Source: Sedimenticolaceae bacterium (GTDB lineage Bacteria > Pseudomonadota > Gammaproteobacteria > Chromatiales > Chromatiaceae). Taken from it: DNA of 64,000 bases. The stretch's first letter is position 1. Each line of letters opens with the position of its first letter. The translations under genes and the position numbers were made by a program. This document shows, one piece after another, positions 5,258 to 55,158 of the stretch. Under the pieces are notes generated by a model. The model ran no database searches and was not told where the DNA came from. It saw only the letters and a list, made by a program, of their open reading frames with translations. The DNA lies in contig JBNKKH010000035.1 of assembly GCA_050291725.1 (NCBI GenBank), positions 7,894-71,893 of the forward strand, in the 5' to 3' direction.

Positions 5258-6295
5258 ATGGATCTTGATCTGAATAAATTCCGCACACTAATCCCCATTC
5301 ATGCGCTGTATGAGAATAATCTCATGCTTCTGGCCAAACAATCTGAGACAAGAAAACTTGAAAAAGGTGACATTGTTTTCAGACAAGGTGATGAAGACCA
5401 GGATTCTGTTTTCTTGTTAGCAGGAACGATCGAACTCATTTCTGCAGCAAATGAAGAGAAGAAAATCGTTGCTGGATCAAATGAGGCCAGTTACGCCTTA
5501 GCTGCAGACATACCCCGAAAATATGATGCTATCGTAACCTCTGATACTGCAAGTGTGGTCTGGGTAAATAGAGTGTTACTTGATCGCCTATTGGCATGGG
5601 GAGAGTCAACAATACAAGATGAGGAAGAGGCAGATAGCGACAGAGCTCATTCTGAGCTTGATAGCGAATGGATGATGGCTATGTTGCAAACGGATACTTT
5701 CCAAAAACTCCCATCGCAAAATATACAGAACCTTTTCTCTAGAATGGAGGAGATTAAAGTAAAAAAAGGCGATGTTATCGTAAGTTATGGAGAGGAAGGT
5801 GGTTATTATTACATGGTAAAGATGGGACGCTGTCAGGTAAGCCGTCCAACATCTGATGGTCGTGAAGATATCTTGGCCGAGATTGGACGAGGCAGCAGTT
5901 TTGGCGAAGAGTCTTTAATCTCGGATGCTCCGCGCAATGCAACTATTACCATGCTGTCTGATGGAATACTTATGCGTCTCGCCAAGCAGGACTTTATCGA
6001 ACTTTACAACCAACCAATTCAAAACTTGATAAGTTTTGATGAAGCCAACAATATGGTTTCTGCTGGTGCATGTATGCTAGATGTCCGCCTGGAGAGCGAG
6101 TACCAAAACTCATATATTGATGGTGCTATTAGCCTTCCTCTCAGTGACATTAGAGATCAAGGTCCTAAGCTTGACCGAGAAAGAAAATACATAGTTTATT
6201 GTGACACCGGACAACGTAGCTCAACTGCTGCATTTATTCTTAGTGAAATGGGTCTGGATGTATATGTGATAGAAGGTGGTGTTTCCAGCAACTAG
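5258..6295 (+). CDS. Protein with two cyclic-nucleotide-binding domains and a C-terminal rhodanese domain
   Basis: Two cNMP-binding-like segments (GDIVFRQGDEDQDSVFLLAG...; GDVIVSYGEEGGYYYMVKMG...FGEESLISDAPRNATITM). The C-terminal rhodanese has active-site loop YCDTGQRSS. Confidence 0.8.
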   Translation: MDLDLNKFRTLIPIHALYENNLMLLAKQSETRKLEKGDIVFRQGDEDQDSVFLLAGTIELISAANEEKKIVAGSNEASYALAADIPRKYDAIVTSDTASVVWVNRVLLDRLLAWGESTIQDEEEADSDRAHSELDSEWMMAMLQTDTFQKLPSQNIQNLFSRMEEIKVKKGDVIVSYGEEGGYYYMVKMGRCQVSRPTSDGREDILAEIGRGSSFGEESLISDAPRNATITMLSDGILMRLAKQDFIELYNQPIQNLISFDEANNMVSAGACMLDVRLESEYQNSYIDGAISLPLSDIRDQGPKLDRERKYIVYCDTGQRSSTAAFILSEMGLDVYVIEGGVSSN

Positions 6296-37155: not shown

Positions 37156-37447
37156 ACGTCAAGACGAGAGGATTACTCACGCTACGCGCTCGTTCTGCTG
37201 ACCTCCGGTCCTGGTCGAACCATCTTTTGAGTCGTAGGTTCGAATCAAATGTATTACATCTGATGTATAAAACTCTCCACTCCATGGAGAACTCTATTTA
37301 TTGGTCGGAGCGAGAGGATTACTCACGCTACGCGTTCGTTCTGCGGACCTCCGGTCCTGGTCGAACCATCTTTTGAGTCGTAGGTTCGAATCAAATATAT
37401 TACATCTGATGTATAAAACTCTCCACTCCATGGAGAACTCTATTTAA
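37156..37447 (-). repeat. Two tandem 146-bp units (about 97% identical) immediately 3' of tRNA-Pro, each ending in a copy of the tRNA 3' end
   Basis: Unit 2 (37302-37447) and unit 1 (37156-37301) differ at about 4 positions outside the first 9 nt of unit 1. TGGTCGGAGCGAGAGGATT (plus strand) recurs at 37302 and 37448, a period of 146. Confidence 0.88.
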
Positions 37448-37524
37448 TGGTCGGAGCGAGAGGATTCGAACCTCCGACCCCCACAACCCCATTGTGGTGC
37501 GCTACCAAGCTGCGCTACGCTCCG
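37448..37524 (-). tRNA. tRNA-Pro (anticodon GGG)
   Basis: The minus strand reads CGGAGCGTAGCGCAGCTTGGTAGCGCACCACAATGGGGTTGTGGGGGTCGGAGGTTCGAATCCTCTCGCTCCGACCA. It has a perfect 7-bp acceptor stem, anticodon loop AUGGGGU and an encoded CCA. It is near-identical in architecture to E. coli proL. Confidence 0.93.
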
Positions 37525-47287: not shown

Positions 47288-47674
47288 CTATTGACCTTCG
47301 TCCTTCAATAGATCCTTGAGCGCAGAAAACGGCCTGGAGGTTGCCGTATTCCCGCGACTGTCAACATTACTGCTACCTCCATACCTCTCCTCCTCCACAT
47401 ACCTTGAATGTTCGTTATCATGGCAATAGATACACAACAACTCCCAATTGGATCCATCCTCCGGGTTGTTATCATGATCGTGGTCACGGTGATGCACCGT
47501 TAGCTCATGCACATTTACCTGGGTGAATTCGCGACGACAACGCCCGCAAATCCATGGATACATCTTCAAAGCCCGCCCCCGGTAGCTACGCTCCCGTTCT
47601 TCCCGTTTGCTTCTGGCCGCTGCAACAACCTGATCTAACTTGGTATTGTTAATTAAACTCTTATCCTGTGACAT
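47288..47674 (-). CDS. yajD: HNH endonuclease-family protein, YajD-like
   Basis: CGRCRREF...LTVHHRDHDHDNNPEDGSNWELLCIYCHDNEH. The ATG at 47674 is preceded by GGAGG. The ORF-track extension to 47719 is unlikely. Confidence 0.8.
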   Translation of the reverse strand: MSQDKSLINNTKLDQVVAAARSKREERERSYRGRALKMYPWICGRCRREFTQVNVHELTVHHRDHDHDNNPEDGSNWELLCIYCHDNEHSRYVEEERYGGSSNVDSRGNTATSRPFSALKDLLKDEGQ

Positions 47675-47845
47675 AGGAAACAACCTCCATAACAAGATTA
47701 TAGAACCTCTAGACAACAATTAATGGTTGTAAGCCAGATACCGCACCACTGCTTAGCTAAGCCATATTTCTGGTAGCAAGCATTCGGAAATAGAATAGAC
47801 TAGAGGTTATACTCATTGAGTAACATCAGAATAGCGGAGGATTTG

Positions 47846-52105: not shown

Positions 52106-53110
52106 TCACTTTTTAAACATATTCATATCTGGAACAGATAACCACCAGGTTGGCCCCATACCATAGGTATAGTCATTGCAATTATATTCTTCCGGCTGCG
52201 AATAGAGCAGCTCTACATCTGGATGTTTCTGGCAAAAGGTTACCGCGCCAACAACCTGCATCTTGGTACCATGTAACAGGGCAGTTAAATTATATTGATT
52301 TCTATATAAGGCATATATCCTAGTAAAAACATCATAGACTGCCTCCCAACCATGCGGCTTAACAGACAGTATGTTAGTTATTTTATCTGCATACCTCTCA
52401 AGGATCATTGCGTGGTTTTTAAGATACACCTCGCGCAGACCTTTTCGACACTTTAAAGTGCTCTGCATAATAACAACTATCTTATCTGGATCGACCTCTT
52501 CTATTGTTGAGATTTCACGTTCAGCATCACAACCAAGAAGCAGTATTAGTAGTGATGGTTTTTGTTCCTGTTTATCGCCCAAAAAACCTGGCACAGTTAA
52601 TACATTCTTAACCCCCTTTGTTAACCAGGTAGTACTTACTCCACATTTCTCAGTTGCATATTTTTCCGGGTCGGAATAAAACAGATATAGGGGCTTATCG
52701 CCTTTCTCTCTAAGAATAACATCAAGCAGATAGATCAGTACTCCTCTATTGAAAGTAGAAATATCAATTGCAATATAATCTGCATGATTTATGGCTTCTA
52801 ACATTGTGGGTTTGTAAGATTCAAGCAGTCCATTTTGTACACTTGATTCCACAGGTATTTGAATAGGATCATTACTAGATACAGAAGCAAAATATTGAAC
52901 TAATTTTTTATGGTTCTGCAGGTAAGCCTTAGAGCCTAAGAAGTCATGAAAATGAAAAATAAATACTGACTCAATACCATGACACCTCTCAGTAGTATTT
53001 ATAGATGCAAGAGACCTTGGTTCATAACTGGAGTGGCAAAAGAAAGCTATCTTCCCGCTTTTTCTAAACGGCGGAAAGCTATTTTGTATATTTAAAAAAT
53101 GGTGTGCCAT
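52106..53110 (-). CDS. Hypothetical 334-aa protein; possible tandem Rossmann-like (CARF/SAVED-like) sensor; family not identified
   Basis: Clean ATG-initiated ORF (AGGTGG 3 nt upstream). Two halves each carry a strand-(D/N)x(S/T)..G/F.(K/R)-helix-strand pattern: IAIDISTFNRGVLIYLL...LYLFYSDPE and YNLTALLHGTKMQVVGAV...ELLYSQPE. The region is AT-rich. Confidence 0.6.
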   Translation of the reverse strand: MAHHFLNIQNSFPPFRKSGKIAFFCHSSYEPRSLASINTTERCHGIESVFIFHFHDFLGSKAYLQNHKKLVQYFASVSSNDPIQIPVESSVQNGLLESYKPTMLEAINHADYIAIDISTFNRGVLIYLLDVILREKGDKPLYLFYSDPEKYATEKCGVSTTWLTKGVKNVLTVPGFLGDKQEQKPSLLILLLGCDAEREISTIEEVDPDKIVVIMQSTLKCRKGLREVYLKNHAMILERYADKITNILSVKPHGWEAVYDVFTRIYALYRNQYNLTALLHGTKMQVVGAVTFCQKHPDVELLYSQPEEYNCNDYTYGMGPTWWLSVPDMNMFKK

Positions 53111-53388
53111 ATTCCACCTATACGATAGGTGGGCAACGCGTAAGGCATTCCTACTATATGCTATAACTATTTATCTAATGTTTATTTTTCCACTCATGGA
53201 AACAAACTGCGTTTTCCATGTTGCCCCTAGTGTTCACCCGATCAGAATTATCGTTATAATATTGTATTGTTGTGTTATCTGGCCGGATTATACATTAAAA
53301 CCACTACGTTTTCTGTAGTTATTTTATCGTTGTACTATCTTGAGTGGAAAATATTTGCCAACTATAACTTAATAATAAGTTGTTTTTT

Positions 53389-55158
53389 CTACGAGAAAAG
53401 ATTCCTTAACCAACCCTTCTTCTGATGTTCAACTGACCCTTTCTCATTATGACTATGGCGGACTGGTCGCACTAGAAAATTCTTCATACACTGGTTACAA
53501 ATCTGTCTATACAGATCATTCGATTCTTTGAGTAAGGCTTCCTTATCGTGAATAAAATAGTCTGTCGCGCTATCGGTAAAGGCATCAGCAATCTTCTGAA
53601 ACCCTTCAAATGTTTCTGCAATTACAAACTGGAGAGATTGGTTACCCAGAAACCCCAGATCGTCAATCATCTCTCTGAGACTCTTCTCCTCTTCACTCTT
53701 AACCATAAGATTTTGCAGACGCAACTTTAGAGCCTCATTAAACATAGTAAATTGGGTGACTTTTTCATCATCTGAACTGGTTAAACTTTGATCTATCACC
53801 TCTTTCAGTTGGGCTATATTCAGAATCAGATGGTAAGTACTTAGATCAGATATATACTTACGCATAGTAGTAAAATCTACCTTCTGCTCAGTATATTCAA
53901 GGAATTCGCTATTTGAATAGAGGATAGAGTAAATCCTTATCCAATCAGTTAGGCGCTCTACCCCAACCGATGTAGACAAACCTAGAGAGGTGCGCTCCAG
54001 TTCAAGAAACTGTTTCCCCGCTGCAGCCTTCTGCAATGCTGGGGATATTTCGAACACTCCATCCAAACCGATAATCTTCTCTTGGGCAATCCTGATATTC
54101 TCTTTATCCTCACTATTAATCATGCTGGTATCTTCTGCCAGTTGGCTAAGATACTCTTTAGTTATAGCGAGTTCAGATTGAATTCCATTGTGGTATAGCT
54201 TCATGCGATCTTCAGCATGGCGATACTCGTCAATGAAGGTTAGTGCAAGCTTCTTCAATATCGCCTGTTGATCATGGTTCACTAACAGCATCAGATCTTC
54301 CAATATATCTCGAGCATTCTGCGTTAGTTTTGATGGACACCTATAGCCCCAAATTCTACTAATGATCTTCACATATGCTCGAAAGTTATCATCTAGCAGA
54401 ACATCATGCTCCTTTATATGACGAAACAGACTATTAACCGCCAACCTAAATTTAAGTTGCTGCAGTATAGTGGGCTCAATTCCAGTATTCAGATAGTGTT
54501 TAAACAGGACCTGCTCATCATCCTCACTATCTTTCATTCTGATAGTACTGTCCTGTTCCTCTGGCTCACCACAGGCAAACACTGCCATTAAATATGGCTT
54601 GATGGTTAAATATTTATAGTTTGATTTTATCTCGCGCGTCAGTCGCTCAATCAATCTTGAACAGGTCGTAGCATGTTTCAGAGGAAAATTACTATATTTT
54701 TGGAGTACGGCTGATACGACTTGGCGCCCTTTTTCAATCCTAATCAGATCATCTCGGTATTGCTTTACCAGATCGTCAGACAGTTTTTCCACATCTCTTT
54801 GCTTATATCCAGCACGCACCTTAAGCAAGAACTCTGAAGGCATTTTGGTACTGATGTATATATTTGAGAGTTCTGCGCCAAATTGTTTTTCTAGCTCCGC
54901 AGATATATCCAAATAGGTAACATTAGCAAATTTATCACTGTTATCTTTTAGACTGTTTTCCACATCATCTATTAGAACAGTTGCTATCTCCTCTAGCTTT
55001 GCACTTGCAGAGGCAATTTTGTGTTCATTACACAACTGATTGAAGAAGGCTGAAAACTCTGGAGCATGCATATAATCCTTAATAGTGCGAATTACGGCAT
55101 CTACATCTCTGTTGATATAGAGCTTACGTAACTCCTCTTTGAATTGACTTATCTCCAT
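53389..55158 (-). CDS. Hypothetical 589-aa protein, apparently all-helical and soluble; no family recognised
   Basis: Long uninterrupted ORF in an AT-rich region. It has no Walker A, no TM segment, no signal peptide and no catalytic motif I can defend. It is co-oriented with and upstream of the 334-aa ORF. Confidence 0.6.
   Translation of the reverse strand: MEISQFKEELRKLYINRDVDAVIRTIKDYMHAPEFSAFFNQLCNEHKIASASAKLEEIATVLIDDVENSLKDNSDKFANVTYLDISAELEKQFGAELSNIYISTKMPSEFLLKVRAGYKQRDVEKLSDDLVKQYRDDLIRIEKGRQVVSAVLQKYSNFPLKHATTCSRLIERLTREIKSNYKYLTIKPYLMAVFACGEPEEQDSTIRMKDSEDDEQVLFKHYLNTGIEPTILQQLKFRLAVNSLFRHIKEHDVLLDDNFRAYVKIISRIWGYRCPSKLTQNARDILEDLMLLVNHDQQAILKKLALTFIDEYRHAEDRMKLYHNGIQSELAITKEYLSQLAEDTSMINSEDKENIRIAQEKIIGLDGVFEISPALQKAAAGKQFLELERTSLGLSTSVGVERLTDWIRIYSILYSNSEFLEYTEQKVDFTTMRKYISDLSTYHLILNIAQLKEVIDQSLTSSDDEKVTQFTMFNEALKLRLQNLMVKSEEEKSLREMIDDLGFLGNQSLQFVIAETFEGFQKIADAFTDSATDYFIHDKEALLKESNDLYRQICNQCMKNFLVRPVRHSHNEKGSVEHQKKGWLRNLFS

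Follow-up and report, generated by a model that had tools for sequence, protein, structure and literature searches.

Introduction

CARF domains have a six-stranded, Rossmann-like core in which strands 5 and 6 form a beta-hairpin, and their features include a polar serine or threonine at the end of strand 1 and a lysine or arginine after strand 4, often within the pattern [DN]X[ST]XXX[RK] (PMC4012209, Makarova et al. 2014). In SAVED domains two CARF-like units are fused into a pseudo-dimer that is able to read an asymmetric ligand (PMC12751052). The Csa3a-like regulator HFX_2341 is vertically inherited and is also present in species without CRISPR (PMC11434293). Here we analyze a 64,000-nucleotide stretch of DNA from a Sedimenticolaceae bacterium (contig JBNKKH010000035.1, positions 7,894 to 71,893; "the window" below) and, within it, an open reading frame (ORF) at 52106-53110 on the minus strand that begins with ATG and encodes 334 amino acids (aa). 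A preliminary description, made from the letters alone, had read its product as an internally duplicated, stand-alone sensor of the SAVED/CARF type. Our analysis indicates that the protein is probably still a stand-alone, pseudo-dimeric ligand sensor of the CARF6 family whose usual partners are absent from the locus.

Among described proteins, those matched by the PADLOC-DB v2 model CARF6--CARF_CARF_CARF share with the 334-aa protein its size (about 330 aa), its two-unit architecture and its conserved residues. The 334-aa protein differs from the CARF6 proteins of 14 more distant systems that we examined in lacking a methylase/phosphoesterase/ATPase operon and in having its own leader and termini that are specific to the clade of its close homologues (hereafter "the clade"). 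We take the PADLOC CARF6 models to be derived from the CARF/SAVED census of Makarova et al. 2020 in Nucleic Acids Research. The two-unit chain is also shared with SAVED proteins, namely Cap4/Cap5 of cyclic-oligonucleotide-based antiphage signalling systems (CBASS), CalpL and the viral AcrIII-2, the last of which is likewise stand-alone. In contrast with these, the 334-aa protein matches no SAVED profile, is not associated with a CD-NTase or Cas10, and has motifs unlike those of SAVED, with ExR after strand 1 and YxxPxxY after strand 5. The duplication in the CARF6/Csa3-like branch appears to have arisen independently of SAVED.

Pfam CARF models built on the Csa3/HFX_2341 proteins, which combine a CARF domain with a winged helix-turn-helix (wHTH), match the C-terminal half of family members (the N-terminal half in one member). 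However, those regulators have one CARF domain plus the wHTH and form homodimers, whereas the 334-aa protein has two CARF units and no DNA-binding domain. Card1/Can2, the cA4 (cyclic tetra-adenylate)-activated nucleases (6WXW), share an alignment of the GTK region with the C-half, but Card1 has a fused nuclease domain and operates in type III CRISPR signalling, neither of which applies to the 334-aa protein. Ancillary CARF effectors of type III CRISPR systems sit by a type III cas locus or array; the 334-aa gene does not, within the 64 kb. The CARF domain of the Zn-ribbon/Ser-Thr kinase/AAA+/CARF/wHTH fusions (PADLOC "CARF6--CARF_STK_AAA") matches the C-half with E = 1.6e-4, and an arginine in the P-loop is found both in these fusions and in the ATPases of the canonical operon described below. 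The fusions are single 1200-aa chains with a kinase domain, while the window has the CARF part only.

A further comparison is offered by PUA-Cal-HAD, a related Calcineurin-CE module (CE, conflict effector) that senses methylome-derived m6-dAMP and depletes deoxynucleoside triphosphates (PMC12871103, which cites Nicastro et al. 2023 for these systems). The canonical partners of the two-CARF family carry Metallophos or HD-CE next to PF24389, and the combination of a sensor, a nucleotide-targeting effector and a link to the methylome is comparable to that in Calcineurin-CE/HD-CE systems. The PUA-Cal-HAD sensor is nevertheless PUA-like rather than CARF, and no such effector is present in the window.

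Results

The 334-aa protein contains an internal duplication

The ORF and all of the peptides quoted in the preliminary description are present at 52106-53110 (minus strand), and a Shine-Dalgarno sequence, AGGTGG, lies 3 nt (AAT) 5' of the ATG. We compared the two halves of the protein with hhalign on two alignments, one of close homologues only (A1; 20 sequences, 55-78% identical, effective number of sequences [Neff] about 2) and one of 72 diverse family members with a mean identity of 29% (A2). On A1, a 9-residue match between LFYSDPEKY and LLYSQPEEY was found alone, with a probability of about 47%, and by this profile comparison the shared rhythm of the halves is not significant on A1 alone. 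On A2, the N-half and C-half profiles aligned over 128-148 columns with a probability of 96.4-96.8%, an E-value of about 1e-9 to 4e-10 and a score of 55-58, and when the C-half was reversed or block-shuffled the score fell to 15-29 versus 58 for the true pair. In the A2 register, FFCHSSYE-PR pairs with LLLGCDAERE in the strand-1 loop, DISTFNRG with LLHGTKMQ after strand 4, and LFYSDPEKY with LLYSQPEEY at the end of strand 5.

The AlphaFold2 model of the protein (mean predicted local distance difference test [pLDDT] 78, predicted template-modelling score [pTM] 0.82) consists of two consecutive b-a-b-a-b-a-b-a-b-b units; in each of them, six strands alternate with helices, and strands 5 and 6 are adjacent. 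The predicted strands span residues 21-26, 46-54, 83-87, 112-116, 141-148 and 169-172 in the N-half, and 186-191, 210-216, 244-250, 274-279, 300-305 and 318-326 in the C-half. The N-terminal segment KIAFFCHSSYEPRSL, which had been thought to resemble a beta1-loop-helix start, does form strand 1, a loop and helix 1 in this model. Because the half-half alignment on A2, its controls and the two-unit model agree, we conclude that the internal duplication is real and that it runs in the register originally proposed.

Profile matches support a CARF assignment for both units

Profile searches, which the preliminary description had suggested as a check, led to PADLOC CARF6, to HFX_2341_N and Csa3_N at the family level, and to Card1 in the PDB. 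The PADLOC model CARF6--CARF_CARF_CARF matches residues 21-323 (model positions 16-299 of 308) with E = 1e-28, and the C-half also weakly matches the PADLOC models for Csx1/Csm6, CARF1, CARF3 and CARF4. Across the family, CARF6 PADLOC models are matched by 72 of 72 members (best 2e-97) and the CARF3 model by 26 of them, while Pfam HFX_2341_N is matched by 44 (best 1.7e-12) and Csa3_N by three (2e-6); the N-half of one member, P0253, directly matches Csa3_N. When the family profile was searched against the PDB, the CARF domain of Card1 (6WXW) was the sole sequence match (E = 3.6e-4), with the C-half segment that runs from strand 2 through strand 5 aligned with Card1 CARF residues 30-123, GTK motif included. 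The same kind of PDB sequence search with the shallow profile A1 gave no match.

Classic CARF features are seen in the N-half, where S27/S28 directly follow strand 21-26 and where D116-I-S118-T-F-N-R122, after strand 112-116, is an exact match to [DN]X[ST]XXX[RK]. The 334-aa protein keeps the family-wide residues E30, R32, D116, F120, Y145, Y151, G166, G178, G193, R198, P208, N274, K283, Y309 and Y314, and has two conservative changes at family-conserved positions (E195D and S315T). Each specific profile match points to the CARF family, which supports the assignment of both units as CARF-type.

The SAVED part of the earlier label holds as an analogy of architecture. No SAVED profile matched the 334-aa protein in Pfam or PADLOC (E up to 10), none matched the 72 family members in Pfam (E up to 0.01), and none was present among the 25 most-matched of 40 PADLOC families for these members (E up to 0.001). 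Judged by its profiles, the protein is not a SAVED member. It shares with SAVED the arrangement of two CARF-like units in one chain, and is "SAVED-like" in architecture only.

Relatives outside the clade sit in a methylase-ATPase operon

An exhaustive HMMER search of 1.84 billion representatives (50% identity) recovered 1109 representatives of the CARF6-type family with an E-value of 1e-3 or less, 486 of them with 1e-10 or less. Nearly all are 310-340 aa long, stand-alone and matched end to end. Canonical loci were collected from genome and metagenome scans with a six-member alignment (A4), together with look-ups of the closest outgroup (the P0117 group). This gave 14 systems outside the clade (L008, L009, L010, L016, L018, L019 with two systems, L022, L023, L024, L029, L030, L031 and L032), distributed among Marinomonas, Ignavibacteriota, Undibacterium macrobrachii, Thiocapsa bogorovii, an unclassified gammaproteobacterial metagenome-assembled genome (MAG; L016) and metagenomes.

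In all 14 systems the two-CARF gene is the last of its operon, and the gene directly upstream of it encodes an ORC-CDC6-like AAA+ ATPase (Pfam PF24389). The start codon of the two-CARF gene overlaps the end of the ATPase gene in eight systems, and a gap of 7-36 bp separates the two genes in the other six. The ATPase occurs in two arrangements: in one it carries a calcineurin-like metallophosphoesterase at its N-terminus (about 945 aa), and in the other the gene of a separate Metallophos (PF00149) or HD-CE (PF24391) protein comes before it. Of the 13 systems for which enough upstream DNA was available, 11 have a C5 cytosine DNA methylase of the Dcm type (PF00145) as the leading gene. The operon ATPases have an intact Walker A motif, GxRGTGK[ST], and Walker B motif, hhhhDD, and the phosphoesterases keep DxH and GNHD. 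PADLOC PDLC01925, the model of the kinase-AAA+-CARF fusion, matches both the P-loop region of the ATPase and the C-half of the 334-aa protein. An arginine inside the P-loop has been described for the kinase-AAA+-CARF-wHTH fusion proteins (Makarova 2014, PMC4012209). The P-loop arginine of the operon ATPases and the double match of PDLC01925 thus connect this AAA+ clade with CARF6-type domains; the two are fused in one family and share an operon in another.

Several of these loci are located in defence or mobile islands: L031 has an MvaI/BcnI-Vsr restriction-modification system nearby, and L032 has genes for reverse transcriptase, toxin-antitoxin and IS66. The operon can reasonably be read as a restriction-modification-like defence module, in which the two-CARF protein would most likely be a ligand-gated regulatory subunit of the ATPase-effector. 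A regulatory-subunit role is favored over that of an off-switch because the gene is translationally coupled to the ATPase-effector gene in canonical relatives. Our literature search found no paper in which CARF6 is named or the canonical operon is described, and no experimental study of either.

One metagenome contig (Ga0302315_10001393; L019 5086-14973) carries two complete methylase/effector/ORC-Cdc6/two-CARF systems, convergent and side by side. The calcineurin-like domain is fused to the ATPase in one of them and a separate HD-CE protein is present in the other; a single adjacent methylase was detected for the two systems together. In one canonical subgroup, an ORF of 214-215 aa lies directly 3' of the two-CARF gene (L022 3832-4476; L024 8981-9625; L027 883-1530).

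The gene is a long-standing orphan at its locus in Sedimenticolaceae

The methylase/ATPase operon is absent from all clade loci examined, the window included. When methylase, phosphoesterase and ATPase queries were run by tblastn against the 64-kb window, no homologue of any of them was found, and the window contains no CRISPR-like repeat array. The genes annotated in the window and in L003, L031 and L032 include no cyclase (at the other loci, comparison of the neighboring genes was with the operon proteins), and neither profiles nor the model reveal an effector domain fused to the 334-aa protein. The 10 non-obvious ORFs of the window that we scanned are housekeeping genes, and the Pfam-annotated syntenic genes are likewise. 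For the ORFs and genes covered, these results bear out the earlier statement that the gene stands alone, with no effector, cyclase or CRISPR locus nearby.

The gene is flanked by macAB, uvrB, aspC and thrS, and its site lies between a macB-type transporter operon and a gene for a 589-aa protein beside uvrB. In a 5.8-billion-cluster collection we found 24 close homologues (55-99% identity), and the same layout (thrS, PHO4, HNH, macAB, 334-like, 589-like, uvrB, aspC, gspH) is present in every clade locus examined, with synteny complete at 60% and at 57% identity. Between the window and L003, UvrB is 87% identical, the CARF protein 60% and the 589-aa protein 65%. Beyond the clade, the most similar sequences (P0117 group, about 35% identity) belong to canonical operons.

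At least 20 homologues (55-99% identity) keep an intact reading frame, with 75 invariant positions. The ratio of nonsynonymous to synonymous substitution rates (dN/dS) is 0.13-0.15 in the two pairs for which dS could be estimated; elsewhere synonymous sites are saturated, with the proportion of synonymous differences (pS) at 0.75-0.84 and that of nonsynonymous differences (pN) at 0.11-0.27. The 334-aa and 589-aa genes are both low in GC (0.376 and 0.396), whereas the macB-like gene and uvrB that flank them have about 0.50. The gene is an old chromosomal resident of Sedimenticolaceae MAGs under purifying selection, and it is vertically inherited, since its layout is shared across the clade loci. 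The simplest history is that a canonical system lost its partners or that the sensor gene was captured alone.

Both termini of the protein, aa 1-17 (MAHHFxNxQNSxPPF) and aa 326-334 (VPDMxxFKK), are invariant in the orphan clade and absent from canonical members, and the confidence of the model is low there. Possibly they are short linear motifs that were gained after the gene became solitary. The public gene calls of three homologues (P0004, P0007 and P0019) start 12-13 codons further upstream (MPY...GWNMAHHF), inside the conserved leader described below, which is likely a mis-annotation. A small upstream ORF in the leader beginning MPY was considered and rejected, as it meets a stop at codon 3 in L003, L013 and L021 and is out of frame in the window.

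A conserved leader precedes the gene

The spacer between the 589-aa and 334-aa ORFs is 278 bp long and does not behave as neutral sequence. It contains a conserved leader which, together with an extended -10-like element, spans about 190 nt (53114-53300, minus strand; Table 1). The putative promoter element TGTATAAT was not called by a consensus promoter scan, which needs a -35 element. The leader motif is unique in the window and was found only upstream of clade CARF genes, whereas canonical members, which are translationally coupled to the ATPase gene, are without this leader.

In the clade loci the first long-range helix reads GGGYGA/UYRCCC, with a C:G to U:A exchange in three loci, the second reads AGGCA/UGCCU, and the top of the Shine-Dalgarno hairpin stem varies between loci in a compensatory fashion. 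On the leader alignment, 95.8% of cells are paired versus 31-52% when the partners are slid. Most of the pairs are invariant, one pair covaries, and the covariation comes from few events. The helices were recovered in seven of nine single-sequence minimum-free-energy folds, and the window's own minimum-free-energy fold is the Shine-Dalgarno hairpin alone. In L034, the clade member that diverges most, the leader is not alignable by eye to the scheme of the P1 and P2 helices, and an Rfam search with the leader returned nothing credible. We regard the leader as a candidate cis-regulatory RNA that could sequester the ribosome-binding site.

Table 1. Positions in the window of the two-CARF gene, its units and motifs, its leader and the neighboring gene.
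Feature	Position	Strand	Basis
Two-CARF-domain stand-alone protein, 334 aa, CARF6 family	52106..53110	-	ORF; PADLOC E = 1e-28; dN/dS 0.13-0.15
N-terminal CARF-like unit, about aa 18-175	52586..53059	-	Six strands alternating with helices; homologous to C-half (hhalign 96%)
C-terminal CARF-like unit, about aa 183-327	52130..52564	-	HFX_2341_N at residues 189-309 (sub-threshold here); PADLOC CARF models; Card1 alignment
S27-S-Y-E-P-R32, N-half strand-1/helix-1 loop	53015..53032	-	S28, E30, R32 invariant in alignment A3; in A2 R32 invariant, E30 at least 90%
D116-I-S-T-F-N-R122, directly after N-half strand 4	52745..52765	-	CARF signature; D116, F120 nearly invariant family-wide
Y145-S-D-P-E-K-Y151, N-half strand-5 end	52658..52678	-	Y145 invariant; Y151 nearly invariant
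G193-C-D-A-E-R198, C-half strand-1/helix-1 loop (family consensus GxExER)	52517..52534	-	R198 invariant, G193 nearly; pairs with SSYEPR loop
G281-T282-K283, after C-half strand 4	52262..52270	-	K283 nearly invariant; aligned with Card1 GGTK
Y303-S-Q-P-E-E-Y309, C-half twin of the Y145-Y151 motif	52184-52204	-	Y309 nearly invariant
Conserved 5' leader	53114..53240	-	Blocks invariant among nine clade loci with saturated synonymous sites
Leader long-range helix GGGUGA/UUGCCC	53239-53234 with 53136-53131	-	RNAalifold, pair counts
Leader long-range helix GGGCA/UGCCU	53226-53222 with 53147-53143	-	RNAalifold, pair counts
Leader hairpin CCACCUAU/AUAGGUGG	53132-53125 with 53121-53114	-	Pairs the Shine-Dalgarno sequence (53119-53114), CCACCU-loop-AGGUGG
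TGTATAAT, putative extended -10-like promoter element for the 334-aa gene	53287..53294	-	Block TGTA(T/G)nAT conserved in all leaders
589-aa all-alpha protein (context; no partner role shown)	53389..55158	-	AlphaFold2 all-helical, pLDDT 83

Discussion

We consider it probable that the 334-aa protein is still a stand-alone, pseudo-dimeric CARF6 ligand sensor, with its usual partners absent from the locus. In such a sensor, the strand-1 loops of both halves (SSYEPR and GCDAER) and the loops after strand 4 (DISTFNR and HGTK) would all contribute to a single asymmetric pocket, as in SAVED, and the ligand that we infer to be bound there would be a small nucleotide derivative. Judging by the context of canonical relatives, this ligand is likelier to be a product of DNA or methylome turnover, or of the chemistry of the ATPase-effector, than a product of Cas10 or a CD-NTase, and the missing partner would likewise be the ATPase-effector rather than Cas10 or a CD-NTase. 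At the locus there is neither the methylase nor the ATPase-effector. The output would have to be in trans, as regulation of an effector encoded elsewhere, or else would consist in buffering or degradation of the ligand. The orphan gene itself is kept at a fixed chromosomal site and appears to have its own promoter and a structured leader.

Several points weigh against this interpretation. The 334-aa protein alone scores 17.1 bits for HFX_2341_N versus a Pfam cut-off of 30. Its C-half has no serine or threonine after strand 1, where G193 is found instead, and the basic residue of this half is off the classic spacing, with K283 of N274...G-T-K283 lying three residues further along. When the whole model was compared with the PDB and BFVD by Foldseek, generic tandem alpha/beta proteins (Rossmann-like doubles) were the only matches, with TM-scores of 0.2-0.28 (TMq) and root-mean-square deviations of 17-22 Å, and no CARF or SAVED entry was among the top 50. 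The literature yielded no ligand, binding assay or structure for any family member, and the orphan status covers the locus, as seen in the window and the clade loci, rather than the whole cell. CARF6 and the CE/ORC-Cdc6 systems are probably the subject of Makarova 2020 and Nicastro 2023, both in Nucleic Acids Research.

A different possibility is that the protein acts on the ligand instead of relaying it, as a stand-alone sink or ring-nuclease-type enzyme that sequesters or degrades a signalling nucleotide, in the manner of stand-alone CARF ring nucleases. It carries no effector domain and is not linked to an effector, and both strand-1 loops contain invariant acidic and basic residues (E30/R32 in the N-half; D195, E197 and R198 in the C-half). 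There is also precedent in AcrIII-2, a stand-alone protein of two CARF-like units with ring-nuclease activity (PMC12751052), and the SAVED domain of CalpL is reported to be a ring nuclease too (PMC11417357). Nonetheless, no ligand-making cyclase or Cas10 is known in the locus, the coupling to the ATPase-effector in canonical relatives suggests a regulatory subunit, and a search of a viral collection found no relatives of the two-CARF protein. We regard this sink or ring-nuclease role as unlikely but, in view of AcrIII-2, as a serious alternative.

The preliminary description had pointed to the 589-aa neighbor as a possible signal generator or effector, and the two genes might accordingly form a new two-gene module in which the all-alpha protein replaces the ATPase-effector as partner, generator or effector. 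In all of the clade loci that we examined (the window, L003-5, L011, L013, L020, L021, L028 and L034) the two genes are adjacent and have the same orientation, both are low in GC, and the conserved, clade-specific termini of the 334-aa protein could bind a partner. The neighbor itself, however, has no match in Pfam, PADLOC or NCBIfam and no relative in the PDB by sequence or fold (best E 0.6), and it contains no catalytic or nucleotide-related domain, Walker motif or beta-sheet. Its family comprises 92 proteins, reaching Sedimenticola and relatives, and homologues at 44-48% identity sit in four housekeeping contexts (L001/L002, L006, L007 and L035), none of which has a CARF gene. The adjacency of the two genes in the clade is explained by descent, since the whole region is syntenic and homologues occur elsewhere without the CARF gene. 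Low GC is a trait of the 589-aa family, which falls below its own genome in every genome examined, and the 278-bp gap holds a separate, conserved promoter-like element and leader. A partnership between the two proteins is thus without positive support, the suggested role for the neighbor is not borne out, and a joint module seems quite unlikely.

The 589-aa family is confined to Sedimenticola-like gammaproteobacteria, and in Sedimenticola thiotaurini a histone-deacetylase-family gene follows the homologue. The 589-aa protein was also considered as a degenerate ORC/Cdc6-like ATPase, as a 595-aa ATPase of this type occupies the same position in L016. This was rejected: BLAST shows no similarity between them, the model is all-helical without a Walker A motif, and there is no PDB relative.

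The gene could alternatively encode a domesticated defence sensor, that is, a chromosomal receptor for an endogenous nucleotide signal, controlled by a hitherto undescribed riboswitch-like leader (P1/P2 helices and the hairpin over the Shine-Dalgarno sequence), whose output would pass through a new partner, possibly the 589-aa protein, by way of its terminal tails. We think this version improbable.

A reading of the two halves as generic Rossmann-like units belonging to an unrelated enzyme or to a stress protein, for example tandem universal stress protein (USP)-like or kinase-like, with the CARF label a profile artefact, is highly improbable. The top Foldseek matches are tandem USP-like C-terminal domains of KCC, a tandem USP (3loq) and KaiC, but they are reached at the TM-scores and deviations given above. 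No USP, kinase or phosphoribosyltransferase (PRTase) profile was matched in Pfam or NCBIfam, the protein contains no P-loop or USP ATP-binding motif, and the specific profile matches are all to CARF families. None of the outcomes named beforehand as contradicting the preliminary description (a non-Rossmann fold, a fold without internal duplication, a confident match to an unrelated enzyme family) occurred. Finally, it is scarcely credible that the gene is now functionless and decaying, left over from a defence operon that was lost: the partner genes are missing and GC is low, but the frame is intact in the homologues with its 75 invariant positions, dN/dS is 0.13-0.15, and the family-conserved residues, the leader and the Shine-Dalgarno sequence are conserved.

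The CARF6 family has been catalogued; our analysis ties it to an operon that recurs among its members and combines a Dcm-type methylase with a nucleotide-targeting "conflict effector" phosphoesterase and an ORC/Cdc6-like ATPase. This tie gives the family a testable role, as the putative ligand-gated subunit of a restriction-modification-like defence module. The window copy is a natural experiment in which the sensor has been kept over long evolutionary time without its system. If the 334-aa protein still binds ligand, it would be a small soluble protein with which the signal of the whole family could be found, and it would also illustrate how a defence sensor can be kept for a different purpose. 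The conserved leader, for its part, is a candidate for a new cis-regulatory RNA. Current ideas are not overturned by these results. Both orphan CARF proteins and orphaned genes of defence systems are to be expected.

Other features of the window

Three further features, separate from the two-CARF gene, were recorded in the window. A 146-bp tandem repeat at 37165-37466 (2.1 copies, 97% identical) overlaps the 3' end of tRNA-Pro(GGG) (37448-37524, minus strand) by 19 bp. The repeat unit includes a tRNA-like GGTTCGAATC segment. The arrangement may be left over from an integration event at the tRNA. At 5258-6295 on the plus strand, a 345-aa protein has two cyclic-nucleotide-binding domain matches fused to a rhodanese domain; it is a further nucleotide-sensing protein of the window and is unrelated to the CARF gene. 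A small stand-alone HNH protein is encoded at 47288-47719 on the minus strand, between the PHO4 transporter gene and macAB, its HNH assignment being transferred from the Pfam-annotated gene at the syntenic position in L003, and its synteny is conserved across the clade.

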